A stretch of DNA of 64,000 bases from Acidobacteria bacterium RIFCSPLOWO2_12_FULL_68_19 (GTDB taxonomy: Bacteria > Acidobacteriota > Vicinamibacteria > Vicinamibacterales > UBA2999). The stretch is taken from the NCBI GenBank assembly GCA_001767525.1, contig MELF01000029.1, forward strand, positions 25,500-89,499, given 5' to 3'. Shown piece by piece: positions 11,158-49,776 of this stretch. Position numbers and translations under genes: made by a program. The notes below the pieces were generated by a model that saw only the letters and a program-made list of their open reading frames with translations, did no database searches and had not been told where the DNA came from. Each line of letters opens with the position of its first letter. Within the stretch, counting starts at the first letter, position 1.

Positions 11158-13725
11158 ATGTCCGAGTACCGCCCTCGAGATCTCGATCGGAAATGGCAGC
11201 AGCGCTGGGCGTCGTCCCGCGCCTTCGAGGTGGACGTCGATCCGTCGCGCCCCAAGTTCTACTGCCTGGAGATGTTCGCCTACCCCTCCGGGCACGCGCA
11301 CGTCGGCCACGTGCGCAACTACATCATCGGCGACGTGATCGCCCGTACGAAGCGGATGCGGGGGTACAACGTGCTGCACCCGTTCGGGTGGGATGCCTTC
11401 GGCCTGCCCGCCGAGAACGCCGCCATCAAGGGGGGACTGCATCCGGAAGTCTCGACCCGCGGCAACATCGCGCACATGAAGGGGCAGCTCCAGCGGCTCG
11501 GCATCAGCTACGCCTGGGAGCGCGAGCTGGCCACCTGCGACGCCGAGTACTACAAGTGGAACCAGTGGCTCTTCGTCCGGATGTTCGAGAAGGGGCTCGC
11601 CTACCGCCGCCGGTCGTCCGTGAACTGGTGCCCGAGCTGCCAGACCGTGCTGGCCAACGAGCAGGTGGTCGACGGCGGCTGCTGGCGCTGCGGCATACCG
11701 GTCGAGAGGCGCGATCTCGAACAGTGGTTCTTCCGGATTACGGCGTACGCCGACGAACTGCTCGACGGGACGGACGCGCTCTCGCGGTGGCCCGACAAGG
11801 TGCTGACGATGCAGCGGAACTGGATCGGGCGCTCGGAGGGCGCGCGCGTCACGTATCCGCTCGAACACCCACCGGGATCCGGGGTCGGGGATTCGGCATC
11901 CGCGATCGAGGTCTTCACGACGCGCATCGATACGATCTACGGCGCCACCTTCGTGCTGCTGGCGCCGGAGCATCCGCTCGTGGCCGGCCTGGCCGAGCAG
12001 TCGAAGGATCCGGCGTCGTTCCGGCGACAGGTGCAGGCGTTCCGCGCGCAGGACCGGGCCGCGCGGATGAGCGGGGAGATCGAGAAGCAGGGGTTCGACA
12101 CCGGCTTTCGCGCCATCAACCCCTTCACGAACCAGCCGGTTCCGATCTGGGTCGCGAACTTCGTGCTCGGCGAGTACGGCACGGGCGCCGTCATGGGCGT
12201 CCCGGCGCACGACCAGCGCGACTTCGAGTTCGCCCGCAAGTTCAATCTGCCGATTCGCGTCGTGATTACGCCGGACGGCCGGCCGCTGGACGCCGACGGC
12301 CTGGCCGAGGCGGCCGAGGCGTACGGGACGCTCGTCGACTCCGGCGAGTACTCCGGCCTGAGGTCGGCGGAGGCGCAGCCACGCATGGTGGCCGCCGCCC
12401 GGGCCCGCGGGCTGGGCGAGGCGACGGTGCAGTACCGCCTCAAGGACTGGGGCATCTCCCGACAGCGGTACTGGGGAACGCCGATCCCGATGATCTACTG
12501 CGACACCGACGGGATCGTCCCTGTGCCGGACGGGCAGCTCCCCGTGGTGCTCCCGACGGTCGCGCAGTTCACCGGCCGCGGCGACTCGCCGCTCGCGCAG
12601 GTGCCCGAGTTCGTCGACGTCAACTGCCCGACGTGCGGCGGTCCCGCTCGGCGCGAGACCGACACGATGGACACCTTCGTCGACTCGTCCTGGTACTTCT
12701 ACCGATTCGCCGATCCGCGCAACGACCGCCAGGCGTTCGATCCGGCCGTGGTCAGGTACTGGCTGCCGGTCGATTTCTACAGCGGCGGCGTCGAGCACGC
12801 CATCCTGCACCTGATCTACTCGCGCTTCTTCGCGCGGGTCTTCCGCGACCTCGGGATGGTCGATCACAGCGAGCCGTTCACGCAGCTCCTCACCCAGGGC
12901 ATGGTGCTGAAGGACGGCGCCGTCATGTCGAAGTCGAGGGGGAACGTCGTCGATCCGGACACGATGATCCAGAAGTACGGCGCCGACGCGCTGCGGCTGT
13001 ACGTGATGTTCGTGGCGCCGCCGGAAAAGGAAGTCGAGTGGACCGACGCGGGTCTCGAGGGGAGCTTCCGCTTCCTCGCGCGCGTGTGGAGGCTCGTGGA
13101 CCACTGGGTGGACGCGATCGGAGGCGAAGGTGTCGCACGCGGCGACGTCTACCTGACCGTGAACGCCGCGGAACGGACGCTGCGGCGCAAGACGCACGAG
13201 ACCATCCGCCGCGTCACCTCCGACATCGAGGAGCGGCAGCAGCTCAACACCGCCGTCTCGGCGATGATGGAGCTGGTCAACGAGCTGTATGCGTTCAGCG
13301 ATCGGGCGGTCACCGGTGCGCCCGGGCGCCGCGCCGGCGAGGACGTGGCGCACGCCGGGGGGATGGAGCGGCGCGAGACGATTTGTGTCGTGCGCGAGGC
13401 GGTGGAGGCGCTCGTCCGCATGCTGGCGCCGTTTGCGCCGCACACGGCCGAGGAGATGTGGGAGCGACTCGGCCGTTCGACCGGCCTCGGCGCCGCCGCG
13501 TGGCCGGCCTGCGATGCCGACGTCGCCAGGGCCGAAGAAATCGTCGTGCCAGTGCAGGTCAACGGCAAGGTTCGGAGCCGACTGACGGTGCCGGCCGACG
13601 TGTCCGAGCAGGAATTGGAGCGGCTGGCCCTCGCCGATTCGGCGGTGCGAACCTACACGACCGGGAAGGCCGTCAAGAAGGTCGTCGTCGCCAAAGGGCG
13701 CCTCGTCTCGCTCGTGGTTCAATAG
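11158..13725 (+). CDS. leuS: Leucyl-tRNA synthetase
   Basis: MFAYPSG-HVGH (HIGH), GWDAFGLPAENAAI, DWGISRQRYWG, MSKS (KMSKS). Confidence 0.98.
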   Translation: MSEYRPRDLDRKWQQRWASSRAFEVDVDPSRPKFYCLEMFAYPSGHAHVGHVRNYIIGDVIARTKRMRGYNVLHPFGWDAFGLPAENAAIKGGLHPEVSTRGNIAHMKGQLQRLGISYAWERELATCDAEYYKWNQWLFVRMFEKGLAYRRRSSVNWCPSCQTVLANEQVVDGGCWRCGIPVERRDLEQWFFRITAYADELLDGTDALSRWPDKVLTMQRNWIGRSEGARVTYPLEHPPGSGVGDSASAIEVFTTRIDTIYGATFVLLAPEHPLVAGLAEQSKDPASFRRQVQAFRAQDRAARMSGEIEKQGFDTGFRAINPFTNQPVPIWVANFVLGEYGTGAVMGVPAHDQRDFEFARKFNLPIRVVITPDGRPLDADGLAEAAEAYGTLVDSGEYSGLRSAEAQPRMVAAARARGLGEATVQYRLKDWGISRQRYWGTPIPMIYCDTDGIVPVPDGQLPVVLPTVAQFTGRGDSPLAQVPEFVDVNCPTCGGPARRETDTMDTFVDSSWYFYRFADPRNDRQAFDPAVVRYWLPVDFYSGGVEHAILHLIYSRFFARVFRDLGMVDHSEPFTQLLTQGMVLKDGAVMSKSRGNVVDPDTMIQKYGADALRLYVMFVAPPEKEVEWTDAGLEGSFRFLARVWRLVDHWVDAIGGEGVARGDVYLTVNAAERTLRRKTHETIRRVTSDIEERQQLNTAVSAMMELVNELYAFSDRAVTGAPGRRAGEDVAHAGGMERRETICVVREAVEALVRMLAPFAPHTAEEMWERLGRSTGLGAAAWPACDADVARAEEIVVPVQVNGKVRSRLTVPADVSEQELERLALADSAVRTYTTGKAVKKVVVAKGRLVSLVVQ

Positions 13726-13726
13726 G

Positions 13727-14266
13727 GTGGCTGTGAAGAAGCTCCTCTGCCTGCTCGCGCTCGCGAGCGTGACGAGCGCCGGGTGCGGCTACGCTCTGGC
13801 CGGGCGGGGGTCCTTTCTGCCGACCTACATCACCGTCGTCGGCATCCCGCCGCTCGTGAACAACACCGCGTTCTTCCAGGTGGAGCAGATTCTCACCGAG
13901 AAGATTCGCACCGAATTCATCGGCCGGGGCCGCTACACGGTGATCCCGGTGCCGGAAGGCGCCGACGCGGTGGTGACCGGCACGGTCACGTCCATTTCGG
14001 TCCAGCCGATCGGCTTCACCGAGCAGCAGCTCGCCTCCCGCTACCAGTTCACGCTGATGATGAACGTGCAGTTCACCGACACGCGCACGAACCAGGCGCT
14101 CTGGTCGAACAGCGCGCTGACCTTCCGCGAGGAATACGAGCTCAGCACCCGCAGCAACGTGGCGCTCGAAGGGGCCACCTTCCTCAGCCAGGAGCGGAGC
14201 TCGTTCGACCGCATCGCCGACGACGTGGCGCGCACGGTCGTCACCGCCATCCTCGAAGCGTTCTGA
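13727..14266 (+). CDS. lptE: LptE family LPS-assembly lipoprotein
   Basis: Lipobox SAGC-GY after a hydrophobic stretch; conserved position downstream of leuS. Confidence 0.85.
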   Translation: MAVKKLLCLLALASVTSAGCGYALAGRGSFLPTYITVVGIPPLVNNTAFFQVEQILTEKIRTEFIGRGRYTVIPVPEGADAVVTGTVTSISVQPIGFTEQQLASRYQFTLMMNVQFTDTRTNQALWSNSALTFREEYELSTRSNVALEGATFLSQERSSFDRIADDVARTVVTAILEAF

Positions 14267-14424
14267 TTACAACCGCTCTTACCGTCGTGAGGGACGCCCT
14301 GGTGCGGAAATTGTCGCGAGATGCAGGGCACTGCGTACCCGCGCCGTCGGCGACTGCGAACGTAGGCTAGAATCCAGCTGTCCAGTCACGAATGTTCACT
14401 CTGCGTCGAAGGAGGTCTTCGGCC

Positions 14425-15690
14425 ATGCGCGTCGTTCCGAGAACCCAGCGGTTGGCACTGGCGGCTTGCGTTGCCGTCTGCGTCGTCGTCTCCCCTGGAC
14501 CCGAGGCCGGGGCACAGGGCGCATTCACGCTCCTGCGCAGCGTGCCGGCGGATACGGGCGGATTCTTTGCCGGTGACGTCTCCGAGGCGTTCGACCTCAT
14601 CGCGATCGGCCCGCATCTACCCGGCCAGGCGTCGAGGCCCGGCCAACCGCTGACGACCAGGGGCTACATCACCTTCTTCAATGCCGACGGCGACGTGCTG
14701 TCGCGCACGCAGGTCGGCGGCACCGTCTGGGCGCTCGCCATGACGCCGGACGGCTCTCGCACCGTCGCGGGCTCCGACGATGAAAAGCTCTACGTGTTCA
14801 ACCGGACCACGCTGGTGGCGTCCGGTGTGCCCGTGACGGAGGATCACGAGATCCGCGGCATCGCCGTCAGCAACGACGGGCGGTATGCGGGCGTGGGCGG
14901 GGCGTGGTTCACGCTGCACGATCTCTCGGCCGTCGATCCCATCCGGCCGATCTACACCGACACCACTTCCACGCAAACGCGGGCCGTGGCCTTCTCGGCC
15001 AACGGACGCTACGTCGCCTACGGCGGGTGGAACAACACGGAAGCGGCGCGCGGCGCGGCGCCGACGATGTACCTGGCCGTGTATGACGTGCAGGTGCGGC
15101 AGCGGATCTTCACGTACCGGATCGCGTACCCGACCGGTACGATCGCCGAGCTCCGGCACGTGTCGATCTCGTCGGACGGGAACAAGATCGTGGCGGGCAA
15201 CTGGGCGAACCACGTGCTGTACTTCGTTCGATCGGATCCGGCGTCGACGACGTGGGCGCTGATGCAGGACATCCCGTTTCCGCAACGCCTCTACTGGACC
15301 GCCATGGATCCGGCCGACTCGGTGGTTGCCGTGGGCGAGCAGAGCGGGGTGGTGCTCCTTTACGCCATGGAGGAGTCCGCGCTGACCCCGCTCTGGGAGC
15401 GGCGAGAGGGTTTCAACGGCGGGCCCCGCACGGTAGGCATCTCCGCCGACGGCGCATACGTCACGGCGACCACCCGTGGAAGCTGCGGCGAACCCGGCAG
15501 CGGGGGCCGATTCCTGGTGTGGTCGCGGGAAGGCGAAGAGGTGTTCAACGGCGCGAGCGCCGAAGCCGCGTGCGGCGGCCCGAGCCCACCCGCCGAATCG
15601 TGGTTCGGAGCGATCGCTTCAGGAGGGTCGCGTCTGGTGTACGCCGGTTGGGGCGGTCTGGCGCTCTTCTACCAACTCGCATCCCCGTAA
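14425..15690 (+). CDS. Exported WD40/YVTN-like beta-propeller protein
   Basis: Signal peptide ending AGA-Q; repeated blade motifs (LAMTPDG, IAVSNDG, VAFSANG, VSISSDG, VGISADG); AAGGAGG RBS. Confidence 0.7.
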   Translation: MRVVPRTQRLALAACVAVCVVVSPGPEAGAQGAFTLLRSVPADTGGFFAGDVSEAFDLIAIGPHLPGQASRPGQPLTTRGYITFFNADGDVLSRTQVGGTVWALAMTPDGSRTVAGSDDEKLYVFNRTTLVASGVPVTEDHEIRGIAVSNDGRYAGVGGAWFTLHDLSAVDPIRPIYTDTTSTQTRAVAFSANGRYVAYGGWNNTEAARGAAPTMYLAVYDVQVRQRIFTYRIAYPTGTIAELRHVSISSDGNKIVAGNWANHVLYFVRSDPASTTWALMQDIPFPQRLYWTAMDPADSVVAVGEQSGVVLLYAMEESALTPLWERREGFNGGPRTVGISADGAYVTATTRGSCGEPGSGGRFLVWSREGEEVFNGASAEAACGGPSPPAESWFGAIASGGSRLVYAGWGGLALFYQLASP

Positions 15691-15714
15691 CACGGATTGA
15701 CGTCGGAGGAGACG

Positions 15715-16677
15715 ATGAGCATGCGACTGGCTACTGCGCTCGCGGGAGTCCTTGTCCTCGCGTCGGCGGCGCTGCCGGCGCAGGTCGCCGAGCAGCGGCT
15801 CCATCTGAGTCCCGTCGTCGCCAAGCTGGCCGAAGGACGGACGGTCTACGGTCTCCAGGCGGCCAACGACCTCTCGATCGGATCGGCCCGGACCGCGGCC
15901 CGCGCGCCGGCCGACTACATCTACGTCGACATGGAGCACAACCCGCTCGACCTGCCCGGGCTCTACCAGTTCCATCTGTCGATGATCGACCGGGCGCTGG
16001 TCCTGAAGAAGGGTAACCTCCAGCCGAACGTCGCGCTGATGGCGCGCTTTCCGCCCGAGGCGGATGACTCGGGGTGGGTGGTCAAGCAGGCGCTCGACAT
16101 GGGGCTGCACGGCGTCTTCTTCAACGGCGTCGACACGCCGGAGCAGGCGCGCGCGGCCGTGAGCTTCATGCGTTATCCGCCGAGGCGCGACGCGAAGTAC
16201 CCGCAGCCAAGAGGCGTCCGGGGCGCGGGACCGGCGAACGCGACGTGGATCTGGGGGGTGACCACCGACGAGTACGAGCGCCACGCCGACCTCTGGCCGC
16301 TCAATCCCGACGGCGACCTGCTCGCGACGATGATGATTGAATCGGCCGACGGGCTGGCCAACGTCGATCGGATCGCCGCCGTCGCCGGCGTCGGCGCGCT
16401 CTTCATCGGGAACGCGAACGATCTGGCCCACGGCCTGGGCGTGCCGCAGAATCATCCCGACGTGGAAGCCGCCCGCCAGAAGATCCTGGCGGCGTGCAAG
16501 GCGCACAAGGTCGCCTGCAACATCACCGCGAACAGCGCCGACGAGATCGTCCGGCGCGTGGGCGAAGGGTGGCAGATGATTCGCACGACCGTCGCGGCCA
16601 TCAACGCGGCGCGGCCGCGGCTGACCGATCCGAAGACGGCGCCGCCGCCGGCCGATCCTTTTGTCTTTCCCCGCTGA
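15715..16677 (+). CDS. HpcH/HpaI class II aldolase family protein with N-terminal signal peptide
   Basis: DMEH, ARFP, VKQALDMG, MIES and FIG..DL motifs, preceded by MSMRLATALAGVLVLASAALPA. Confidence 0.8.
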   Translation: MSMRLATALAGVLVLASAALPAQVAEQRLHLSPVVAKLAEGRTVYGLQAANDLSIGSARTAARAPADYIYVDMEHNPLDLPGLYQFHLSMIDRALVLKKGNLQPNVALMARFPPEADDSGWVVKQALDMGLHGVFFNGVDTPEQARAAVSFMRYPPRRDAKYPQPRGVRGAGPANATWIWGVTTDEYERHADLWPLNPDGDLLATMMIESADGLANVDRIAAVAGVGALFIGNANDLAHGLGVPQNHPDVEAARQKILAACKAHKVACNITANSADEIVRRVGEGWQMIRTTVAAINAARPRLTDPKTAPPPADPFVFPR

Positions 16678-16715
16678 ATCGTCTAGACTCCGGCCAGATC
16701 GCGCAGGGAGCTGAT

Positions 16716-17336
16716 ATGGCGGACGAAGATCGCGACCACTCCGACCTGTCGGTGACACGACGGGCGTTTCTGAAGGGCGGCGCCCTGGCGACCGGCGCCC
16801 TGTCGTCCACGCTCATCCCCACACCCGCGGACGCGCAGCTCCCCGTTGCGACCGAGTCCGACCCGCGGCGCTCGGTCGTCGAGATGACGGTGAACGGCGT
16901 GGCGTACCGGAAGGAAGTCCCGAACCGGACGACGCTGCTCCAGTTCCTGCGCGAGCACCTCACGCTGACCGGCGCGAAGATGGGATGCGACCGCGCCCAG
17001 TGCGGCGCGTGCACGGTCGTCGTCAACGGCCGCAACGTGTACTCCTGCACGACGCTGGCGGTCGAGGCCACCGGCGCCGAGGTGCTCACGATCGAAGGGC
17101 TCGCCAAAGGCGACGCACTTCACCCGATCCAGCAGGCGTTCATCCAGCACAGCGGCTTCCAGTGCGGGTTCTGCACGTCGGGCCAGATCATGACGACCAA
17201 GGCGTTCCTCGACCGCGTGCCCCGGCCGACCGAGGACGAGGCCCGCCGCGCGATGAGCGGCAACCTGTGCCGCTGCGCCGCCTACAAGCGCATCCTCGAA
17301 TCGGTCATGACGGCGTCGCGCCTGATGCAGGCATAG
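16716..17336 (+). CDS. 2Fe-2S subunit of a xanthine dehydrogenase-family enzyme with Tat signal (PaoA-like)
   Basis: TRRAFLK twin-arginine motif; GCDRAQCGACT, QCGFCTSG, GNLCRC. Confidence 0.9.
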   Translation: MADEDRDHSDLSVTRRAFLKGGALATGALSSTLIPTPADAQLPVATESDPRRSVVEMTVNGVAYRKEVPNRTTLLQFLREHLTLTGAKMGCDRAQCGACTVVVNGRNVYSCTTLAVEATGAEVLTIEGLAKGDALHPIQQAFIQHSGFQCGFCTSGQIMTTKAFLDRVPRPTEDEARRAMSGNLCRCAAYKRILESVMTASRLMQA

Positions 17337-17345
17337 GGAGGCGCC

Positions 17346-19616
17346 ATGGCGCAGCAGCAGAACACCACACGCACTCTGAGGGTGATCGGCGGGGACGGAC
17401 CGGTCATCGACGCCGTCGAGCGCGTCACCGGCCAGGCGAAGTACACGGGCGACCTCGAGCTGCCGGGCATGCTCGTCGCCCGCGTCCTCCGCAGCCCCCA
17501 CGCGCACGCCCGCATCGCCGGCATCGACACGAGCCGGGCCGAGGCGCTCCCGGGCGTCAAGGCGGTGGTGACGCACAAGGATGCGGCGAAGGTTCCGATC
17601 TGGGGGAACCGGCAGCGGGCGCTGAACGAGCAGGTCCGCTTCGCCGGCGAGGCGGTGGCGGCCATCGCCGCCGTCGACGAGGAGACCGCGGCGAAGGCGC
17701 TGCCTCTGATCGACGTGAAGTACGAGGTGCTGCCGTTCGTGCTCGATCCCGAGAAGGCGCTCGAACCGGGCGCGCCGCAGCTCTTTGCCGACGGCAATCT
17801 CGAGGGACAGCCGCGCGTGCTGATCCGCGGCGACGTCGAGCGCGGCCTGGCCGAGTGCGACCGGGTGATCGAGCGCGTCTACCACACGCCGACGATGTGG
17901 AGCGGCAGCATGGAGCCGCGGGCGGCCATCGCGCAGTGGGAAGGGAACAAGCTGACGGTGTGGGCGTCGACGCAGGCGCCGTGCCGCGTGCAGACGAACC
18001 TGACGGGACAGTTCAACCTGCCGGACAGCCAGGTGCGCGTCATCGCCAGCTACGTCGGCGGCGGCTTCGGCACCAAGAGCGCCGCCCACGTCGACGAAAC
18101 GATCGCGGCGCTGCTCTCGCGCAAGGCGCGCCGTCCGGTCAAGCTGCAGTACTCGCGGGAAGAGGAGATTCTCGATTCGAACACCCGGTTCGAGACGCGC
18201 GTCTACGTGAAGGTCGGCGTCAAGCGCGACATGACGCTCCACGCGATGGACGTCAAGGCCTACATCAACCAGGGGGCGTACCACGTGCGTCTCGGCGGCC
18301 TCGGGAACCAGGCGACGCACATCTACAGGATTCCGCATCTGCGCACGGTCCAGTACCGGGTGCACACCAACGTGCCGAACACCGGCCCGACGCGCGGGGT
18401 CGGCGATCCGCAGGAGACGTTCGCCATCGATTCGGCGCTCGACGAGATGGCCGTCGAGATGGGGTGGGATCCGGTCGAGTTCCGCCTGAAGAACGTCAAG
18501 CGCAACGGCGATCCGATTGCCCGCGGCGGCAGCGGCGCCGAGGACGGCCGGCTGGTCGCGCAGGTGACCGACCGGTGCCTCGAGGAGGGCGCGGCGCGCA
18601 TCGACTGGTCGCGCCGCAGCACGCTGCCCGGCGGCGGCCAGACGGGACCCCGGGCGCGCGGTCTGGGCGTCGCGGTGACCGAGCGCGGCAACGGCGGCGG
18701 GCTCGCCGGCGCCTCCGTGACGGTGAACCTGGACGGCTCGGTCGTCGTGTTCTATGCCTCGACGGACATCGGCACGGGGAGCCGGACCACCTTGTCGATG
18801 ATTGCCGCGGAAACGCTGGGGGTGCCGCTCGCCAGCGTCCGCGCCGTGGCCGGCGACACCGAAGTCGCGCCCTACGACGGCGGCAGCTACGGCAACCGCA
18901 CGCTCTACAGCACGGGGCGCGCCGTCGAGGCGGCCGCTCGCGACTGCCTGGACGACATTCTGGCGACCGCGGCGCCGATGCTGAAGGCATCGCCTGCCGA
19001 GGTCGAGCTAGGCGACGCGGTCGTGCGCGTGAAGGCCGATGCGAGCCGCAGCCTCCCGCTGCGGGACGTGATGCAGCGCCGCGGGCGGAGCGTCGTGGGC
19101 GACGGGAGCGTGACGCAGTCGCAGGCCGAGACGAACGTGGAGCGCGCCGCCGGCGCCCATTTCGTGGAGGTCGAGGTCGACCGGGAGACCGGCAAGATCC
19201 GGATCCTCCGCTACGTGTCGGCCCACGACGTGGGGCAGCCGATCAATGTCACCGTCGTCGAGAACCAGATTGAAGGCGGGACGATTCAGGGGCTGGCGCT
19301 CACGCAGGCCGAGGAGCTGCGCTTCGATGCGCGCGACGGCCGCTGCTTGAATGCCAGCTTCCTCGACCTGAAGCCGCCGACGATGCTCGATTTCGACGCG
19401 CGGCGCATCGAGCCCATCGTCATTGCCAATATCGGCGAACAAGGGCCGTACGGGGCCAAGGGGCTTGGCGAGAACCCGTGCCATGCGGGGATGGCGGCCG
19501 TCGCCAACGCCGTGTACAACGCCGTCGGCATCCGGCTGCGGCGGGTGCCGTTCACGCGCGCCGAGGTGCTGCGCGCGCTTGCGGAGCAGCGCCCGGCGTC
19601 CAGCCGCACCGCGTGA
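17346..19616 (+). CDS. Molybdopterin-binding subunit, xanthine dehydrogenase family (PaoC/CoxL-like)
   Basis: KVTG-like RVTGQAKY, SPHAHARI, GGGFGTK, DIGTGSRT, GAKGLGE (catalytic Glu). Confidence 0.92.
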   Translation: MAQQQNTTRTLRVIGGDGPVIDAVERVTGQAKYTGDLELPGMLVARVLRSPHAHARIAGIDTSRAEALPGVKAVVTHKDAAKVPIWGNRQRALNEQVRFAGEAVAAIAAVDEETAAKALPLIDVKYEVLPFVLDPEKALEPGAPQLFADGNLEGQPRVLIRGDVERGLAECDRVIERVYHTPTMWSGSMEPRAAIAQWEGNKLTVWASTQAPCRVQTNLTGQFNLPDSQVRVIASYVGGGFGTKSAAHVDETIAALLSRKARRPVKLQYSREEEILDSNTRFETRVYVKVGVKRDMTLHAMDVKAYINQGAYHVRLGGLGNQATHIYRIPHLRTVQYRVHTNVPNTGPTRGVGDPQETFAIDSALDEMAVEMGWDPVEFRLKNVKRNGDPIARGGSGAEDGRLVAQVTDRCLEEGAARIDWSRRSTLPGGGQTGPRARGLGVAVTERGNGGGLAGASVTVNLDGSVVVFYASTDIGTGSRTTLSMIAAETLGVPLASVRAVAGDTEVAPYDGGSYGNRTLYSTGRAVEAAARDCLDDILATAAPMLKASPAEVELGDAVVRVKADASRSLPLRDVMQRRGRSVVGDGSVTQSQAETNVERAAGAHFVEVEVDRETGKIRILRYVSAHDVGQPINVTVVENQIEGGTIQGLALTQAEELRFDARDGRCLNASFLDLKPPTMLDFDARRIEPIVIANIGEQGPYGAKGLGENPCHAGMAAVANAVYNAVGIRLRRVPFTRAEVLRALAEQRPASSRTA

Positions 19617-19624
19617 GGTCGTCC

Positions 19625-20596
19625 ATGCACAACTTCGCCTACATCCGCCCCACGACGCTGCGAGACGCCGCCGCCCAACTCGGCAAGGAGCACGGCAAGG
19701 TGATGCTCCTGGCCGGCGGCACCGATCTGCTCGGCGAGATGAAGGACGACCTCCGCGTTCCTGAGAAGCTCGTGGCCATCAGGCAGCTTCGCGAGCTGCA
19801 GGGGATCCGGCCGGGCAGGGGAGGGCTTCGCATCGGCGCCGCCACGCTGCTCTCCGACATCGCCGAGAGCGCTCCGGTGCGCGAGCAGGCGCCGCTGCTG
19901 GCGATGGCCGCCGAGACGGTCGGCACGCCGCAGATCCGCAACATGGCGACCATCGGCGGCAACCTCTGTCAGCGTCCCCGCTGCTGGTACTACCGGAACA
20001 ACTATCCGTGCTTCAAGCACGGCGGCAGCGTCTGCTACTCGGTGACGGGCGAGAACGAGTACCACGCCATCCTCGAGGGCGGGCCGTCCTACATCGTGCA
20101 TCCGTCGGACACGGCGCCGGCGCTCGTGGCGCTCGGGGCGACGGTGAGGATCTCGACCGGCGGGCGCGAGCGGGGCGTCCCGATCGAGAAGTTCTTCGTC
20201 GGCCCGCGGCAGGACCCCGCGCGCGAGAACATCCTGCAGCCGAACGAGATTCTCACGGAGATCGAAGTGCCGAGCGCGCCTGCGGGATCGAAGGCGGTGT
20301 ACGTCAAGGAGATGGTGCGGGAGGTCTGGGACTTCGCCCTGTGCAGCGTGGCTGCGATGGTCACGACGAGCGGCGGGATCGTCGGGGACGCGCGCATCGT
20401 GCTCGGCGGAGTGGCGCCGTTCCCGTACCGGGCTTTGAAAGCCGAGGCGGTGCTGAAGGGGAGGCGCCTGGACGAGGCGGCGGCGGCCGCAGCCGGCGCC
20501 GCCGCAGTCGACGGCGCCCGGCCGCTCTCGAAGAACGCCTACAAGGTTCCGCTGACGCAGGCCGTCGTCACGCGCGCGCTGCTCTCGCTGGCGTGA
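19625..20596 (+). CDS. FAD-binding subunit with 4Fe-4S insert (PaoB-like)
   Basis: AGGTDL, QIRNMATIGGNLCQRPRCWYYR...CFK...C, HPSDTAPAL, NAYKV. Confidence 0.92.
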   Translation: MHNFAYIRPTTLRDAAAQLGKEHGKVMLLAGGTDLLGEMKDDLRVPEKLVAIRQLRELQGIRPGRGGLRIGAATLLSDIAESAPVREQAPLLAMAAETVGTPQIRNMATIGGNLCQRPRCWYYRNNYPCFKHGGSVCYSVTGENEYHAILEGGPSYIVHPSDTAPALVALGATVRISTGGRERGVPIEKFFVGPRQDPARENILQPNEILTEIEVPSAPAGSKAVYVKEMVREVWDFALCSVAAMVTTSGGIVGDARIVLGGVAPFPYRALKAEAVLKGRRLDEAAAAAAGAAAVDGARPLSKNAYKVPLTQAVVTRALLSLA

Positions 20597-21069
20597 CCAC
20601 CGACGCCTGGGTGGCGCTCCTGCGGGAATCGGTCGACGCCTTCAACGCCTACCGCGCGGCCCATCCGGAGGCCGCCGTCACGCTGTTCGAGGCCGATCTG
20701 TCGTTTCTGAAGCTGCCGCGCGCCAATTTCGAAGGCGCGGATCTTCGCCGCTGCTGTCTGGAGCGGTGCGACCTGGCGGAGGCGCGCTTCGACGAGGCGC
20801 TGATGGACTACGCGAACCTCCGCAGCGCGCTCCTGCCGGGCGCCACGCTGCGCCGGGCGTCGCTCGTCGCGGTCATTCTGAACGGCGCTGATCTTCGAGA
20901 CGCGCGCCTGGACGAAGCGAAGCTCGCCCGCGCCTCCTGCTGCGACGCGGACCTGCGCGGCGCGAGCCTGCGCGGCGCCGACCTGACCGAGGCCGACCTG
21001 CGCTGGGCAACGTACGAGGTCAGCGCCATGGCGGACGTCGATCTCACCGGCGCGCGCATACGGACGTAA
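20593..21069 (+). CDS. Pentapeptide repeat protein
   Basis: A(D/N)Lxx-type repeats (ADLRR, ANLRS, ADLRD, ADLRG, ADLTE); start overlaps the upstream stop. Confidence 0.85.
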   Translation: MTTDAWVALLRESVDAFNAYRAAHPEAAVTLFEADLSFLKLPRANFEGADLRRCCLERCDLAEARFDEALMDYANLRSALLPGATLRRASLVAVILNGADLRDARLDEAKLARASCCDADLRGASLRGADLTEADLRWATYEVSAMADVDLTGARIRT

Positions 21070-21217
21070 TCTCGGCTTATTTCCTCCGCAGAGCCTTGCG
21101 ATAATCTTGGGTGCCGGAATCGCGCCTGGGCTGGCCTGGGCACGTCGAGGACGTACAGACGTGTGCAAGAAAACTACAAGCAACAGCCCAACACGAATTC
21201 CGATTGACTCGATCTTC

Positions 21218-22102
21218 TTATTGGGGGCCTATGGGTGCTGTCTGGCGCAATGTAATACTGCCTTGACGTGAAAAAGCGCTGCGCCGCAATAGTTCTGGCG
21301 CAGAGACGAGTGGCACTAGTGTGGTCGTTCGAAACGTCCGCTCACTCGTGGTCACCCAGGCGACCGGCAAGACCAGCTCTTGTGAGGTGCGATCCCCGAA
21401 GTAGTAACCGATTTCGATCTTTGAATCGCCACCCATGGAAATCCCGCTCGCTCGCAGGACGGCGAAAGGGTCTTCAGGGCGAACGGTACCAATCGGCCGG
21501 AGGCTCCGCCATGCGACATCCGCACCTACCACAGACCGGTCCGCGCCCACGTATATCGCCACGTGTGCGCCCGGCCCGATTGCCTCAAAGCCATCGATGT
21601 TGCGACCGAATATCGCAATCGCTGTGTTGACTCTCTCCGAGCTGACACCGGTGAGCGTGTCAAAGAATTCATCGACGACATGGCGTACTCCGGTAGTCTT
21701 CAGTTCGTCACGGCCGACAGACACATCCAGAAGCAGGTGCCCTTTCAAGAATGTGAGCGCAATCTGTACAGCTTCACTGTCTGTGAGGTTGAAAGAGCGA
21801 CCGGCAATCCCCTTGTACTTGAGCTGCTCTCGAGAAATTATGAGATCGCCCGTCCGCGGGTATCGTAAGAAGGACCAACCGGAAGTGTCCCATCGCTCAT
21901 ACGAAGCTCGCACCTTGATGGGATTGTCGGCTCCGGCGAGGGAAATCCCCACTGCGGATGCCCAGCGTGACAATACTGGCGCAAACGCCTCTGGGACGAC
22001 TTCGTAGAGCACCATCGACGCCGGGAGAACTGGAGTTTGTGCGATGGCAGTCCGGCCAATCAGGGCAACCCCAACGATCGTCCAAAGCAGGAGTCTCTTC
22101 AT
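21218..22102 (-). CDS. Secreted hypothetical protein, possibly PepSY/YcdB-like; partner of the upstream giant protein
   Basis: Signal peptide MKRLLLWTIVGVALIGRTAIA-Q; ATG 8 nt after the upstream stop; motifs AVQIALTFL and FGRNIDG. Confidence 0.65.
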   Translation of the reverse strand: MKRLLLWTIVGVALIGRTAIAQTPVLPASMVLYEVVPEAFAPVLSRWASAVGISLAGADNPIKVRASYERWDTSGWSFLRYPRTGDLIISREQLKYKGIAGRSFNLTDSEAVQIALTFLKGHLLLDVSVGRDELKTTGVRHVVDEFFDTLTGVSSERVNTAIAIFGRNIDGFEAIGPGAHVAIYVGADRSVVGADVAWRSLRPIGTVRPEDPFAVLRASGISMGGDSKIEIGYYFGDRTSQELVLPVAWVTTSERTFRTTTLVPLVSAPELLRRSAFSRQGSITLRQTAPIGPQ

Positions 22103-22110
22103 GATGAGGG

Positions 22111-25100
22111 CTAACGGATAAATCTGCGCACCAGATACCGGGGACTGGGAATATCCGCGACAGTCGTGCCAGTTCCATGGAAATGATCTGTGTCCATGGT
22201 TTGCGTCGACGTCTCCGATGTTTCCGCAGAGATAACGGCCGGGAAGTTTTCGCCAAAGAACCGGGTCCATGCGTTGGTTGCGACATCAAGCCAGGCAGCA
22301 GAAATTGTATCGCCGTCAACAAGTCGGTCTGCTAGGTCGGGACCGATGTCCGGCAAGGAGAATGTTATAAGTCCCCAGCGGTCGATCGATGTTGTCCTGA
22401 AACCCATAACCATATGGAGTCCTCGAAAATTTCCGGAGGACCACGCCGTGCGCCAACCCGCGTCAGTGAGAACTTCGCAGGCGTCAAGAGCAAGCCACTC
22501 CAGGTCCTGGTCTCCCAATCGCATGAGGCCGCTCAGGGCTAAGGCATCACCTGGACTTTCTCTGGGCTCGGCGACGAATACCACCGCATCTTCACCAATA
22601 GTGGCTCCATGGCCTGAAAAAAAGGCGAAGTCCACAGCATCGACGAAACGATCTTCCACTCCACCAAACCTCGCATCAAGAAAGTGGGTGCCTCGAGCGG
22701 CCGCATCGCCGAGGTTGAAATTCACAGCCGTGGAAGGAAGCCGCTGTCGAAGACGCGTTACGAAACCTGACGCATTGTCGTCAGATCGAACGAGGTCGAT
22801 CAACCCATTCACGCCGCCGTAGTTATTGACCCAGATCGCTCCAACCTCCGTGGAATCGTCGTCGCCAGTCGTCTGTTGCGTTGTTCCCGTAACATTGTTC
22901 ACACGAAAACCATACCCGGTTACACTGCCGTCGCTGGTCAATCGGATTCGAACGGTACGTCCCGACACTTGCTTTGTCTGACCCGCCAAACTCGTGCCCG
23001 TGAACGGACTGCCAGCGATGTCGTTTCCGTTGCCGTCCATGACGTAGATGTAGTCATAACCAGGTTCGACCCACGTCTGGCCATCAAAGGTGACGTTGAT
23101 GGCCGACACGGCTTCGGAGAACGTGTACGTCCATGTGTTGTCGTAATTGTCCGGATAGGGATGCGGCGATTCCGGCAGCTGCAATGCCGTCGTCGTGAAA
23201 CTCTGCACGCTGCCGTACACGATCGTATTCCCACCGCCCTGTGCCGCCGCCCGGTAGTAGTACGTCGTACCGGAAGTCAGATTCGACAACTGCTGCTGGT
23301 AGCTGACACTTGTCGCTCCACTTCCGATATTCTGGACGCTCGTCTGAGTCGTCGGCGGGTTCGTGGTTCCCCACAGGAACCATCCGGTCGTCGAGCTTCC
23401 GTTGGGGTTGACGGAGCCGCGGAGTGTCGCGTTCGTTTGGCCGACGTTTGTAGCGCTATCTGTTGTAACGGTTGGTGGGATGACAGAAGTCACCGTCGTG
23501 ACACTTTGCACGCTGCCATAGACAATGGTGCCGCCTGCACCCTGCGCCACAGCCCGGAAGTAATAGGTGGTATTGGGGTTCAGGTTTGATAACTGCTGTT
23601 CGTAGCTCAGGGCTGACGTGCCGCTCCCAATATTTCGGATCGAGGTTTGCGTCGTCGGCGAGCTGCTTGTACCCCAGACAAACCACGCCGTTGTGGACGT
23701 CCCATTCGGGTTAACCGTCCCCCTCAGCGTCGCCGTTGACTGACCAATCCCCGTCGCCGCGTCTGTCGTGATGCTCGGTGGCAGCAGCGGCGCAGCCGAC
23801 ACGCTCGTCACGCGAAACCCGTAGTCAGTGATACTCCCGTCGGTTATCAGCCGGATGCGGACGGTCCGCCCAGATACCCGTTTCGTCTGACCCGCCAAAC
23901 TCGTGCCCGTGAACGGACTGCCGGCGATGTCGTTTCCGTTGCCGTCCATGACGTAGATGAAGTCGTAGTCCTGTTCGACCGACGTCCTGCTGTCAAAGGC
24001 GACATCGATCGCATTCGCGGCACCGGAGACGGTATACGTCCACGTGTTGTCGAAGTTGTCGGGATACGGATGCGGCGATTCGGGTAACTGGGGGGCGGCT
24101 GTCGTGAAACTCCGCACGCTGCCGTAGACGATCGTATTCCCCCCGCCCTGCGCCGCTGCCCGGTAGTAGTACGTAGCGCTTGGCGCGAGACTAGACAGCT
24201 GCTGCTGATAGCTGACGGTCGTCGTCCCGCTCCCGAGGCCCTGGATCCCGGTCTGGGTCGTAGGAGGGTTCGTTGTTCCCCACAGGAACCAACCCGTAGT
24301 CGACGTGCCGTTGGCGTTCACAGACGCTCGCAGTACCGCGCCGGTCGAAGTGACGTTCGTGGCACTTTCGGTCGTCACCGTCGGCGGCGTCACCGCACTT
24401 GTCCTGAAGCTCTGGATGCTGCCGTAGACGATCGTCCCGCCTCCCCCCTGAGCCGCCACTCGGAAGTAATACGTCGTATTCGCTGTTAGTCCCGACAAGG
24501 CCTGCTCGTAGCTCACCGTCGTCGTGCCGCTCCCGACGCTCCTCACGCCCGACTGTGTCCCTGGCGGGCTGCTCGTGCCCCACAGAAACCATGCCGTCGT
24601 TGAACTCCCATTCGGATTGACCAAGCCTCGCAGCGTCGCCGTAACCTGACCCACTCCGGTCGCAGCCGACGTGGTAACCGTTGGCGGCAGCACGGTCTGG
24701 CTGGTCCTGAAGCTCTGGACGTTGCCGTAGACGATGGAACCCCCGGCCCCTTGGGCCGCCGCTCGAAAGTAATACGTCGTATTGGGGGTGAGGTTCGACA
24801 ATTGCTGATCGTAATTGACGGTGGAGGCACCGCTTCCGACACTTCGTACGCCAGTCTGAATGGTCGGCGAGCTGCTCGTTCCCCAGAGAAACCACGCAGT
24901 CGTCGAACCTCCATTCGGATTGACCGAACCGCGCAACGTCGCCGTCGTTTGACCAATCGCCGTTGCGCTGGAAGTCGTGACGGTTGGTTGAGCGGTCGTT
25001 GCAGCTCGGACGTTCGTGACTCGAAAGCCATATCCGGTCACGCTCCCGTCGCTCGTCAACCGGATCCGCACTGTCCGTCCCGTTACCCGTTTCGTTTGCC

Positions 25101-25752: not shown

Positions 25753-26003
25753 ACCCCTGCAAACTCCGACGTCGTGCCTATCCCGACGAGCCACGAATCG
25801 GGGACCTCACCTCAAAGAGATTCAGTTCTCGTTGAAGGCGTTGATTATTCCGGCTTTCGGGGCCGAACGCCGCCGACCGTGACAGTGACCGAGAGCCTGG
25901 CATGGAATCGACCGGAGGTTCCGTCCCCTTCCCTCTCGAAAAGGTTCGGGACACGCTAATGCCTATCGGACTCTCTGGATCTACTGTCCGGCGAAGCGTC
26001 CAA

Positions 26004-26959: not shown

Positions 26960-27190
26960 GACGTCCTCCATTGGAACCTGGTTGACGGGATCGCCGATTG
27001 ATGGAATGCGCGGCAATTCGTACCCGAAAAGCAGTGCGATTTCAAGACGGAAATGCAATCGGGACGTATTGGTTCGCCGACTGCACGGTCAGATTGTCCG
27101 TTGATGTCGTAATAACTACCAGCGGGAGCTGGCGAATATTGAGCAAAGCCTGCACTTCTTCGATTGACGGTTGCGTACTCAGGTACGCAG

Positions 27191-27216
27191 GACGGGTGCG
27201 GTCAAGCACACCCGTC
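27191..27216. other. 8-bp stem hairpin near the right edge of the accessory region
   Basis: GACGGGTG-N10-CACCCGTC. Confidence 0.4.
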
Positions 27217-27240
27217 AGAGATGCGATGCAGACCCGCCGG

Positions 27241-27246
27241 TAGAAT
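27241..27246 (+). promoter_or_regulatory. -10 box of probable leaderless holA promoter
   Basis: TAGAAT 6 nt before GTG 27253; no Shine-Dalgarno. Confidence 0.55.
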
Positions 27247-27252
27247 GAGTCC

Positions 27253-28182
27253 GTGCCCCCGCTGACCCCCGCCGCGCTCCGGAAGCAGATTGCGTCGGCA
27301 GACACCGGGCCCCTCTATCTGCTCCTTGGCGAAGACGACGCGGAGAAAGCCGCCGTCGCCGGAGAATTCGCCGAGACCGTCGAGGAAGGGCTGCGGGCGT
27401 TCAACGTCGATCGGCTCTACGGCGCCGAGTCGACCGTCGACGACCTGACGCAGACGGCGGCGACGCTGCCGATGATGGCGCCGCGGCGGATCGTGCTGGT
27501 GCTCGCGGCGGAAGGGCTCCTCATCCCGAAGCGCGAGTCGAAAGCCGCGGAGGACGATCAGGAGCGGCTGGAGCGGTTCATCCAGGCGCCGCCGGCCCAC
27601 GCGACGGTCGTCTTCGTCTGCGGTCCGCTCGACATGCGCCGCCGCGTCGTCAAGCTGCTCGTGAAGGAGGCGCAGGTCGTCGACTGCGGGACGATTGGCG
27701 ACGAGGCCGACGCGGAGCGTTGGGTGAAGACGCGGGCCGCTCGCCTGGGAGCTCCGCTCGATGCCGGCGCCGTGCGGGCGCTCGTCCGGCGCGCGGGCGC
27801 CGATCTCGCCAGGCTGCGCGCGGGGCTGGATCGTCTGGCGCTGTACGCGATGGGGCAGCCGGCGATCACCGCCGAGGACGTGCGGCAGGCGGTCCCCGCC
27901 GGGCCGGAGGCGCAGGCCGAATGGGGCATCGCCAAGGCAATCTCCCGCAACGACGCGGCCGAGGCGCTCCACGAGCTGCACCTCACGCTCGACGCGGGCG
28001 CGCAGCCGGTCTTCGTGCTGGGGCAGCTCCGGACGGCCGCCGAACGGCTCCCGCCCTCGCGCGTCCGGCACGGCATCGACGCCGTGTTCCGGACCGATCT
28101 GGCGCTCAAGTCGTCGGGTGGCGAACCGCGGGTGCTGCTGGAGCGGCTGGTGGTGGAGCTCTGTGAACGGAGGCGGCGGTGA
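27253..28182 (+). CDS. holA: DNA polymerase III delta subunit
   Basis: PLYLLLGED, FNVDRLYG, TLPMMAPRRIV, DLALKSSGG; convergent with rpsT as is typical. Confidence 0.92.
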   Translation: MPPLTPAALRKQIASADTGPLYLLLGEDDAEKAAVAGEFAETVEEGLRAFNVDRLYGAESTVDDLTQTAATLPMMAPRRIVLVLAAEGLLIPKRESKAAEDDQERLERFIQAPPAHATVVFVCGPLDMRRRVVKLLVKEAQVVDCGTIGDEADAERWVKTRAARLGAPLDAGAVRALVRRAGADLARLRAGLDRLALYAMGQPAITAEDVRQAVPAGPEAQAEWGIAKAISRNDAAEALHELHLTLDAGAQPVFVLGQLRTAAERLPPSRVRHGIDAVFRTDLALKSSGGEPRVLLERLVVELCERRRR

Positions 28183-48933: not shown

Positions 48934-49776
48934 TTATCGCTGGGCTTTGGAGAGCGCCCCTTCCCACCGCATGCTGATGGCGGGCGCGTTCACGTCGGTC
49001 ACCTTGCCGTGCTTGACGGCAATCAGCTCGGCGACGATGCTGACGGCGATCTCCTGCGGCGTGATCGCGCCGATGTCGAGGCCGATGGGCGCATGGACGC
49101 GCCGGAGCGCGTCGGAGGAGACCCCCTCCTCGAGGAGCGCGTCGAAGATGCGCCGGATCTTGGCCTTGCTGCCGATGAGGCCGAGGTACCGCAGCGGCCG
49201 GGCGGCGAGCGCCCGCATCGTCTCGAGATCGTAGGTATGGCCGCGGGTCACGATGACCGCGTACGCGGTCGGCGGGAACCGGTGATCCTCGATCCAGGTC
49301 GGAATGTGATCGACGACGACGTCGATGCCGTCGCCGAAGCGCCCGGTGCTGGCGAACTTTTCCCGGTCGTCGACGACGTGCACCTGAAAGCCGACCTCCT
49401 GGGCCATCTTCGCCACGTGATAGCCGACGTGTCCGGCGCCGAAGACGTACACCTCCGGCGACGCCTCGATCGGTTCGACGAACACTTCCATCTGGCCTCC
49501 GCAGATGAGCCCCGTCTCCTGCGCGAAGTCGTCGTTCAGTTCGAACTTCAGCGTGAGCGGCTTGCGCGTGGTAATCGCTTCGCGGGCCTTCCAGAACGCC
49601 TCGTTCTCGTAGCAGCCGCCGCCGATCGTCCCGACCGTCCGGCCGTCCGCGTAGACGAGCATCTTGGAGCCGACGCGCTGCGGGGTGGACCCGACCGACG
49701 AGACGATGGTGACGAGCGCCACCTGGTCGCCCCGCTGGAGCGCCTCGTTGAGGGCGGCGAAGACCTCCTGGTTCAT
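48934..49776 (-). CDS. xdhC: XdhC/CoxI family molybdenum cofactor insertion chaperone
   Basis: GSTPQRVGSKMLV, GTIGGGC, CGG, FGAGHVG, APIGLDIGA.TPQEIAVSI. Confidence 0.93.
   Translation of the reverse strand: MNQEVFAALNEALQRGDQVALVTIVSSVGSTPQRVGSKMLVYADGRTVGTIGGGCYENEAFWKAREAITTRKPLTLKFELNDDFAQETGLICGGQMEVFVEPIEASPEVYVFGAGHVGYHVAKMAQEVGFQVHVVDDREKFASTGRFGDGIDVVVDHIPTWIEDHRFPPTAYAVIVTRGHTYDLETMRALAARPLRYLGLIGSKAKIRRIFDALLEEGVSSDALRRVHAPIGLDIGAITPQEIAVSIVAELIAVKHGKVTDVNAPAISMRWEGALSKAQR

Follow-up and report, generated by a model that had tools for sequence, protein, structure and literature searches.

A variable slot in a housekeeping gene cluster of an acidobacterium probably holds three independent extracytoplasmic modules, among them a predicted exported HpcH/HpaI aldolase

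Background

The 64,000-nucleotide stretch of DNA analysed here (the window), apparently from a Vicinamibacteria-like acidobacterium, carries a run of six genes in a slot inside the housekeeping leuS-lptE-holA cluster. This run is probably a mosaic of three independently distributed extracytoplasmic modules that share a variable lptE–holA slot, and not a pathway operon. The first module would be a rare exported WD40-like propeller, and the second a Sec-exported class II (HpcH/HpaI) divalent-metal aldolase with the full catalytic set, from a predominantly leader-bearing clade. The third would be a Tat-exported molybdo-iron-sulfur-flavoprotein of the PaoABC/4-HBCR subgroup, with its genes in the order small, large and medium subunit. 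The modules are tightly packed and probably co-transcribed in this lineage; the aldolase and the molybdoenzyme would nevertheless be independent. Tight co-directional packing within the variable slot of a housekeeping cluster would then have mimicked a pathway operon.

A first-pass annotation of the same DNA had proposed a coupled extracytoplasmic route, in which the aldolase cleaves a substrate and the molybdoenzyme oxidises the aldehyde product. That reading is partly supported: the periplasmic aldolase stands, the label 'PaoABC-type' is roughly right and the coupled pathway is unsupported.

Locus organisation

The genes for the propeller, the aldolase, the FeS, Mo large and FAD subunits of the molybdoenzyme and the pentapeptide-repeat protein were all confirmed (Table 1). 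The co-directional run described earlier at 14425-21069 was recovered with all six genes on the + strand; the genes had been placed correctly, and small coordinate corrections were needed (the 2Fe-2S subunit starts at 16716, not 16713). The propeller has an alternative ATG start at 14392, and the aldolase is preceded by a Shine-Dalgarno sequence (GGAGGAG, 15705-15711). From the propeller through the pentapeptide gene, the intergenic gaps are 24, 38, 9, 8 and -4 nt. Searches of the locus for terminators, promoters and riboswitches, and of the module borders for repeats and mobility genes, returned none. Given the small gaps and the lack of a detected terminator, the genes are probably co-expressed in this lineage, and a lineage-specific functional link between the aldolase and the molybdoenzyme may therefore exist.

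Table 1. Features of the window, with positions, strands and supporting evidence
Feature	Position	Strand	Evidence
leuS (leucyl-tRNA synthetase)	11158..13725	+	ORF, translation; upstream anchor of leuS-lptE-holA cluster
lptE lipoprotein (LPS assembly)	13727..14266	+	PF04390, 51.8 bits
Predicted exported WD40-like beta-propeller	14425..15690	+	Weak beta-propeller/WD40 Pfam matches
Aldolase, predicted Sec-type signal peptide	15715..15783	+	MSMR / hydrophobic core / ..LPAQ
HpcH/HpaI-family class II metal-dependent aldolase	15715..16677	+	PF03328, PDB sequence matches, AlphaFold, Foldseek
2x[2Fe-2S] small subunit, Tat leader	16716..17336	+	PF01799, PF00111
Molybdopterin-binding large subunit, XDH family	17346..19616	+	PF01315, PF02738, PF20256
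FAD medium subunit, four-cysteine insert	19625..20596	+	PF00941, PF03450
Pentapeptide-repeat protein	20593..21069	+	PF00805, 92.6 bits
holA (DNA polymerase III delta)	27253..28182	+	ORF; downstream anchor of variable slot
xdhC-family Moco chaperone	48934..49776	-	PF02625, PF13478

The anchors of the slot recur in related genomes. Matches to leuS in syntenic loci were 84-91% identical (tblastn), lptE is syntenic in L004-L006, L008, L012, L086, L122, L128, L135 and L170, and the window holA matched L004:8278-9210, itself a PF06144 match, at 81% (tblastn). The genes between the anchors vary: leuS-lptE-aldolase-holA, with no Mo genes, in L005 and L012; leuS-lptE-aldolase-three Mo genes-pentapeptide-holA in L004 and L086; and leuS-lptE-three small ORFs-Mo module, with the aldolase missing, in L135. 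L170 reads lptE-propeller-aldolase-FeS-MoL, and the propeller lies between lptE and the aldolase as in the window, where an additional 6-kb low-GC island precedes holA.

The propeller carries an N-terminal leader and is missing from 160 related loci. Only 18 homologues were found, many of them fused to Big_2 or dockerin domains, and one copy (68% identical) sits in an unrelated context. On these sequence matches, the propeller appears to be a lineage-specific insertion that also occurs alone elsewhere.

Molybdoenzyme module

The Tat signal previously noted on the 2Fe-2S subunit was confirmed by the motif TRRAFLK and by a TIGR01409 score of 20.7 (cut-off 16.7), and the translated Mo large and FAD medium subunits have no leader of their own. 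The periplasmic aldehyde oxidoreductase PaoABC of E. coli (paoABCD; PDB 5g5g) is likewise a three-subunit Mo/FeS/FAD enzyme with a Tat leader on the 2Fe-2S subunit only, and it provides a precedent for the export of such a heterotrimer (PMC3958847). The window complex would be exported folded, by means of the leader of its small subunit.

The label 'PaoABC-type' holds for the three subunits and for the single Tat leader, and fails on gene order, equivalog scores and the lack of a PaoD in the operon. PaoABC genes run small-medium-large, whereas the window genes run small-large-medium, and the fourth gene encodes the XdhC-type chaperone PaoD in the former and a pentapeptide-repeat protein in the latter. 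PaoA is the best PDB and NCBIfam match of the 2Fe-2S subunit, with an alignment that spans the leader region. For the large subunit, the best matches are 4-HBCR alpha (1rm6_A, 351 bits) and XdhA, with PaoC lower (238 bits). The NCBIfam equivalog cut-offs for PaoA (202.6 vs 322) and PaoC (349.7 vs 1180) were not reached, nor was any NCBIfam equivalog threshold by any subunit. The enzyme is accordingly described here as a predicted Tat-exported, three-subunit XDH-family member of the PaoABC/4-HBCR subgroup and not as a PaoABC equivalog.

The FAD subunit contains an insert of about 45 residues with four cysteines (C-x4-C-x8-C-x7-C). Its best PDB matches are 5y6q_B (173 bits), 5g5g_B and 1rm6_B, and in the alignments three of its cysteines coincide with cysteines of these proteins, while the fourth position is displaced. 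The insert, which resembles the cysteine-rich insert of PaoB apart from this displacement, is a candidate [4Fe-4S] site of the kind present in PaoB, 4-HBCR beta and the Methylobacillus aldehyde oxidase. The Methylobacillus sp. enzyme (5y6q) and 4-HBCR (1rm6) belong to the same XDH subgroup, and their FAD subunits also carry a cysteine-rich insert; sequence identity is too low for their substrate specificity to be transferred to the window enzyme. The substrate of 4-HBCR, a cytoplasmic enzyme, is a CoA thioester, which would be implausible for the window enzyme with its predicted Tat export. The Tat leader, together with the catalytic-Glu motif GLGENP in the translation, makes a CO dehydrogenase or 4-HBCR function unlikely.

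Co-occurrence of the aldolase and the molybdoenzyme

Comparative genomics did not support a coupled extracytoplasmic route of aldol cleavage and Mo-dependent oxidation. Adjacency of the aldolase and Mo genes is confined to a narrow clade: besides the window, about eight related loci show it (L004, L008, L086, L089, L122, L128, L170, and L006 at 3.3 kb). Elsewhere the two rarely occur together. Most aldolase loci lack Mo genes, and of 17 orthologous Mo modules only 4 are preceded by the aldolase. A search that scored 26 candidates per genome detected no orthologue of the Mo large subunit in 38 of the 45 genomes with the aldolase, a count from which incompleteness of the MAGs could hide some orthologues. 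Both modules are present but unlinked in G404 and G405, where no aldolase, leuS or lptE is near the Mo and pentapeptide genes.

A recently assembled pathway restricted to this lineage, from cleavage of a 4-hydroxy-2-oxo acid by the aldolase to oxidation of the aldehyde to a carboxylate by the molybdoenzyme, is the stronger of two alternatives to the mosaic, and we regard it as improbable. Both proteins are predicted for the same compartment, the 38-nt gap between the aldolase and FeS genes contains no terminator, and the adjacency has been retained in the loci listed above. L076 provides a second and independent juxtaposition: its aldolase, 57% identical to that of the window, is followed after about 0.9 kb by an XDH-family enzyme of another kind, Tat-exported (leader RRNFLK) and with fused small and large subunits. 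One subclade (L039, L040, L048-L050) has a TonB-receptor-like gene, a PQQ dehydrogenase and the aldolase on one strand. Of 80 loci, about 14 carry a gene for a PQQ or XDH-family enzyme within about 2 kb of the aldolase, against a rough chance estimate of 3-7%. However, each genome contains 25-83 PQQ matches and about nine XDH large subunits, so the background rate of adjacency is high; adjacency to PQQ dehydrogenases was downgraded as strong support for a cleave-and-oxidise route on these grounds, and the loci are phylogenetically non-independent. Synteny is already lost among aldolase orthologues that are still 80-86% identical (L005, L007, L009-L012), and the Mo module travels with the pentapeptide gene, not with the aldolase. 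Aldehyde oxidoreductases are also more distant from the large subunit than 4-HBCR and XdhA are.

Aldolase family and fold

The assignment of the second gene to the HpcH/HpaI family with intact catalytic motifs was upheld by a PF03328 match (74.2 bits, cut-off 25, residues 64-300), the DxEH motif, the catalytic Arg, the Glu/Asp ligands and a TIM-barrel fold. The AlphaFold model (pLDDT 92.3, pTM 0.87) was matched best by Foldseek to 4mf4, HpaI, GarL, YfaU and SwHKA, with a probability of 1.00 and a TMt of about 0.8 for 4mf4, 7v8t, 1dxe, 2v5k, 4b5s and 2vws. Residues E74, H75, R111, E209 and D236 are conserved in 135-141 of 146 relatives (at least 92%), and the motif columns align with those of 4mf4 and 7v8t in the PDB sequence matches; in HpaI numbering they correspond to the catalytic residues. 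The 4mf4 protein is itself uncharacterised. An ESM Atlas search returned solely HpcH/HpaI clusters, commonest in Acidobacteriota. The clade comprises more than 1,300 close homologues and about 130 clusters (50% identity, E <= 1e-30), and is mainly acidobacterial.

The window aldolase shares with HpaI/HpcH, GarL and YfaU (PDB 2v5j, 4b5s, 1dxe, 2vws) and 4mf4 the (beta/alpha)8 fold (TM 0.79-0.83, target-normalised), the DxEH motif, the catalytic Arg and the Glu/Asp ligands of the metal. Yet identity to these proteins is only 22-29%, and the window aldolase is set apart by its predicted export leader, by additional segments that follow the RYPP motif and by a conserved pair of cysteines. The pair, C261 and C268 as exactly two cysteines, occurs in 103 of 125 leader-bearing relatives versus 9 of 21 leaderless ones. 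None of the NCBIfam equivalog cut-offs was reached (GarL 72.6/406.8, HpaI 69.1/368.8, YfaU 56.8/441 bits), which places the aldolase outside every characterised specificity group. The shared fold and catalytic residues lead us to expect metal-dependent enolate chemistry with a 2-oxo acid as substrate. In the periplasm, the enzyme would make or break the bond between C3 and C4 of a 4-hydroxy-2-oxo acid, and cleavage would yield pyruvate and an aldehyde or aldose. A CitE or malyl-CoA-lyase-type function was rejected, as Foldseek ranks those proteins far below HpaI-type aldolases and the periplasm is not expected to contain CoA esters.

Leader and predicted export of the aldolase

The window aldolase is predicted to be Sec-exported and is probably periplasmic, and it represents a large, unstudied and predominantly leader-bearing family. 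Its leader consists of an n-region (MSMR), an h-region (LATALAGVLVLASAAL) and a c-region (PAQ), and the Sec-type signal proposed by the first-pass annotation is reinforced by the retention of this n-h-c pattern across homologues. Among the 120 closest homologues, the sequence and length of the leader vary while the charged–hydrophobic–AQ pattern is kept, as is the mature N-terminus (QRLHLNPVIAKL). Past codon 3, the reading frame offers no ATG, GTG or TTG until the conserved core is reached, so the gene does not start downstream of the leader. By a hydrophobicity heuristic, 124 of 146 family representatives bear a leader. Leader status is clustered on the aldolase tree (7 changes vs 20 in shuffles), and the window protein falls within a supported set of 59 tree rows, every one leader-bearing. 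In the AlphaFold model, the leader is a detached low-confidence helix (residues 2-23), with pLDDT <50 at 22-26. A lipoprotein signal was ruled out, there being no lipobox cysteine, and Tat export is unlikely with a single Arg in the n-region, though 31 of 124 relatives have RR.

The weaker alternative, that the N-terminus is an uncleaved inner-membrane anchor or is functionless and that the aldolase is an ordinary cytoplasmic enzyme, is very unlikely. It draws on the fact that export is argued from sequence, on the unusual Gln at -1 of the c-region (..PAQ) and on the position of the other candidate site (ASA|A) inside the hydrophobic core. Furthermore, all characterised HpcH/HpaI family members are to our knowledge cytoplasmic, including the HpaI-, GarL- and YfaU-type enzymes, and a literature search on exported HpcH/HpaI or class II aldolases found nothing relevant. 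Against it, the n-h-c architecture survives complete turnover of the leader sequence in more than 100 homologues, about a quarter of the leaders contain RR, and the leaderless relatives (15-21 of them) begin at the RLN motif, precisely where the leader ends. Besides the window aldolase, the source genome itself encodes a second leader-bearing paralogue (L003) and an ordinary HpcH paralogue that lacks a leader (L002). In other genomes, the neighbours of the aldolase overwhelmingly encode exported proteins; the recurrent ones, all exported or outer-membrane proteins, are TonB-receptor-like genes (20 of 80 loci), PQQ dehydrogenases (14) and DUF6152 (13).

Pyruvate-aldolase C-C cleavage is regarded as cytoplasmic. 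Acidobacteriota are dominant and poorly understood soil bacteria whose genomes are rich in TonB receptors and in periplasmic PQQ and molybdenum dehydrogenases. We tentatively suggest, at somewhat less than even likelihood, that the clade consists of truly periplasmic class II pyruvate aldolases, which would cleave 2-keto-3-deoxy sugar acids imported through TonB receptors, or other 4-hydroxy-2-oxo acids, and pass the aldehyde or aldose products to the abundant periplasmic PQQ or molybdenum dehydrogenases. Part of carbon catabolism would then have moved into the periplasm of Acidobacteriota. We know of no extracytoplasmic aldolases so far, and the clade would be the first. It would also offer disulfide-stabilised, secretion-competent class II aldolases for biocatalysis.

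Pentapeptide partner and xdhC

The pentapeptide gene reported after the Mo subunits is present; its GTG start and the stop codon of the FAD gene share the sequence GTGA. All 39 orthologous Mo loci have such a gene after the FAD gene, versus 0 of 16 paralogous ones; it is the constant, conserved fourth member of the Mo module. The protein has no signal peptide and would act as a translationally coupled, cytoplasmic partner of the exported enzyme.

The xdhC gene was also found where it had been annotated, on the minus strand. It lies 28 kb from the Mo module, unlinked to it, next to genes for a glycosyltransferase and PBP1, and is the single copy in a genome with about nine XDH-family large subunits. 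A role as the dedicated chaperone of the module was not supported, in view of the sole copy for about nine paralogues and of the unrelated neighbours. The strict pairing with a pentapeptide-repeat protein rather than with a chaperone of the XdhC type points to a partner in molybdoenzyme maturation or regulation that is so far unstudied.

Gene organisation of the run

The run of genes from the propeller to the pentapeptide-repeat gene was confirmed as first described, with corrections to the starts of the 2x[2Fe-2S] and pentapeptide genes and to the order of the subunit genes. The G+C content was ~70% over the whole window. Intergenic gaps from the propeller through the pentapeptide gene were 24, 38, 9, 8 and -4 nt, and no promoter-like sites, convincing intergenic terminators or Rfam elements were found in this run.

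Positions of the genes considered and of the variable slot in the window
Feature	Position	Strand	Remark
leuS	11158-13725	+	
lptE	13727-14266	+	
Variable slot	14267-27252		lptE to holA
WD40-like propeller	14425-15690	+	with leader
HpcH/HpaI-family protein (aldolase)	15715-16677	+	
2x[2Fe-2S] (FeS, small) subunit	16716-17336	+	corrected start 16716
Molybdopterin large subunit	17346-19616	+	
FAD (medium) subunit	19625-20596	+	
Pentapeptide-repeat protein	20593-21069	+	corrected start; the GTG overlaps the stop codon of the FAD gene
holA	27253-28182		past the low-GC island
xdhC	48934-49776		

Linkage of the aldolase and molybdenum genes

The first-pass annotation had read this run as possibly a periplasmic aldolase coupled to a PaoABC-type aldehyde oxidoreductase in a cleave-and-oxidise route. 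Such an operon was not borne out, as the molybdenum genes accompanied the aldolase in few relatives and form a separable module. Among 80 genome loci encoding aldolase relatives (up to 10 kb of flank each), the molybdenum genes directly followed the aldolase only at L004 and L008, and a TonB-receptor-like gene stood between them at L006. Equally close aldolase orthologues (80-86% identity; L005, L007 and L009-L012) had no molybdenum genes nearby. At the 71 more distant loci, a same-strand XDH-family operon was found only at L076, where it came right after the aldolase, and at L074, at a distance of 5 kb, each being another paralogue. Large-subunit orthologues (at least 70% identity) were present in 7 of 45 aldolase-bearing genomes, linked in three and unlinked in four; one unlinked case is the unpublished genome of L011 (G413), and only that single count depends on it.

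For the converse comparison, the FAD subunit served as query and gave 80 metagenome loci, 52 of them orthologous. The pentapeptide gene directly followed the FAD gene in all 39 orthologous loci having enough downstream DNA and in none of the 16 paralogous loci, whereas the aldolase lay upstream of the module in 4 of 17 loci, all from a clade with FAD subunits at least 85% identical. In two genomes (G404 and G405), the FeS-large-FAD-pentapeptide unit stood well away from aldolase, leuS and lptE genes, and at L135 leuS-lptE was followed by three small ORFs and the module, with no aldolase. Therefore, the conserved unit is the molybdenum enzyme plus the pentapeptide protein.

Variable slot and neighbourhoods of the aldolase family

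The gene right after the aldolase was holA at L005 and L012; together with the position of the window's own holA, this delimits the classic leuS-lptE-holA cluster and, within it, a variable slot. That slot contained the aldolase alone, the aldolase with the molybdenum module, or propeller, aldolase and module (the window and L170); in further relatives it held small exported ORFs with the module, or a TonB-receptor-like gene. The window's slot additionally carried a 6-kb low-GC island, and neither repeats nor mobility genes were observed at the borders of the slot. The propeller was rare (18 homologues only); many of its relatives were fusions with Big_2 or dockerin domains, and one copy of 68% identity occurred in an unrelated context. 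A stack of independent cassettes in the variable slot of a housekeeping cluster accounts better for these genes than the supposed cleave-and-oxidise operon does; the observation of the first-pass annotation was confirmed and its interpretation partly supported.

The aldolase and the adjacent molybdenum enzyme could instead form a lineage-specific pathway, which we consider unlikely. The aldolase family elsewhere sits amid exported and outer-membrane proteins: its neighbours included TonB-receptor-like genes (20 of 80 loci), PQQ dehydrogenases (14/80) and DUF6152 (13/80), as well as NHL and Vgb-lyase-like propellers, metallo-beta-lactamase-fold proteins and ankyrin proteins. At five loci (L039, L040 and L048-L050), a TonB-receptor-like gene (CarboxypepD_reg), a PQQ dehydrogenase, an exported aldolase and an exported protein of ~300 aa lay on one strand, with DUF6152 and a Vgb-lyase/cytochrome-c-like gene nearby, an arrangement that looks like a periplasmic nutrient-utilisation locus. 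At L076, a gene with fused small and large XDH-family subunits (11741-14827; one frame of ~1,000 aa, Tat leader SRRNFLK) immediately followed an exported aldolase of 57% identity. This juxtaposition and the receptor-PQQ dehydrogenase-aldolase subclade favour the pathway and hint that aldolase and periplasmic oxidoreductases are recurrently paired. However, genomes of aldolase relatives each held 25-83 PQQ matches and ~nine XDH large subunits, and such neighbours may exceed the chance level by 2.5- to 5-fold, on a rough estimate from related genomes.

Export leader of the aldolase

The first-pass annotation had allowed that translation of the aldolase might begin downstream of the signal. A Shine-Dalgarno sequence (GGAGGAG) was located 3 nt 5' of the ATG at 15715, and in-frame ATG, GTG or TTG codons past codon 3 were absent until well within the conserved core; a start downstream of the hydrophobic segment is therefore impossible, and the leader is genuine. 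Across the best 120 of more than 1,375 homologues, the N-terminal stretch varied freely in sequence and length, yet always comprised basic residues, a core rich in Ala, Leu and Val, and a c-region with ..AQ at its end; the near-invariant mature start QRLHLNPVIAKL came directly after it.

For the aldolase family, 1.84 billion representatives were searched exhaustively, which returned 130 clusters (E <= 1e-30). Leaders were present in 124 of 146 full-length members in the alignment; the 15-21 leaderless members began no more than a few residues from the RLN motif, so the leader is not part of the aldolase fold. On a tree built with the leader columns excluded, leader status changed 7 times, versus 20 for shuffled labels, and the window's protein fell inside a supported set of 59 rows, all with leaders. 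In the AlphaFold2 model, the barrel had a pLDDT of 92.3, and the first 23 residues formed a detached low-confidence helix (pLDDT <50 at residues 22-26). The mature domain contained exactly two cysteines, C261 and C268, and this pair occurred in 103 of 125 leader-bearing versus 9 of 21 leaderless members, a pattern that fits a possible periplasmic disulfide. Based on start codons, the leader pattern in relatives, the tree and the model, the predicted export of the aldolase stands and probably extends to a large clade of uncharacterised relatives. Literature searches found no report of an exported HpcH/HpaI aldolase.

The source genome also encodes an additional leaderless HpcH paralogue of ordinary form (L002) and a second leader-bearing HpcH/HpaI paralogue (L003, G000:C20:42593-46219, ORF 790-2286; 36% identical), in which a Pro/Ala/Gly-rich low-complexity linker of ~70 residues separates signal peptide and barrel. 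One family representative, P0135 (598 aa), has one signal peptide followed by two HpcH/HpaI-like halves, with Pfam matching two stretches and the N-terminal half also opening with an HLNRVI motif; it is predicted to be a tandem-duplicated exported form.

Catalytic identity of the aldolase

The aldolase was assigned to PF03328, and its best PDB matches in sequence and fold searches were 4mf4, Pseudomonas and Acinetobacter HpaI, GarL, YfaU and SwHKA; CitE and malyl-CoA lyase types ranked far lower. At least 92% of relatives shared E74 and H75 (DxEH motif), R111, E209 and D236, and the protein looks like a functioning class II aldolase. It approached none of the NCBIfam equivalogs, so a substrate is not transferable from a known enzyme.

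Molybdoenzyme and its pentapeptide partner

The small subunit carried a TRRAFLK motif, passed the Tat-signal model and matched PaoA best, leader region included; the large and medium subunits had no leaders. A leader on the small subunit alone is as in PaoABC, where the folded enzyme reaches the periplasm by means of the PaoA leader (PMC3958847). The gene order small-large-medium is unlike that of paoABC. The nearest matches of the medium subunit were the Methylobacillus aldehyde oxidase, PaoB and 4-HBCR beta, with whose cysteines three of the four in its insert aligned; those of the large subunit were, in order, 4-HBCR alpha, a CoxL-like protein and PaoC. The label 'PaoABC-type' is thus fair for the architecture but not for membership, as the subunits missed all equivalog cut-offs.

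The pentapeptide-repeat protein of the module was leaderless (window 16716-21069; L084, L085 and L086-L138). Its gene holds the place of the XdhC-type chaperone PaoD in paoABCD, so the protein could act in maturation or regulation of the molybdenum enzyme, as a partner not studied so far. The xdhC gene reported elsewhere in the window is real; it has unrelated neighbours and is the only copy in a genome with ~nine XDH-family large subunits. In another genome, a 57% identical copy of the large subunit (G428:C8:1032982-1034883) contained six in-frame TGA codons, and may be a pseudogene or lie on a recoded or mis-binned contig.
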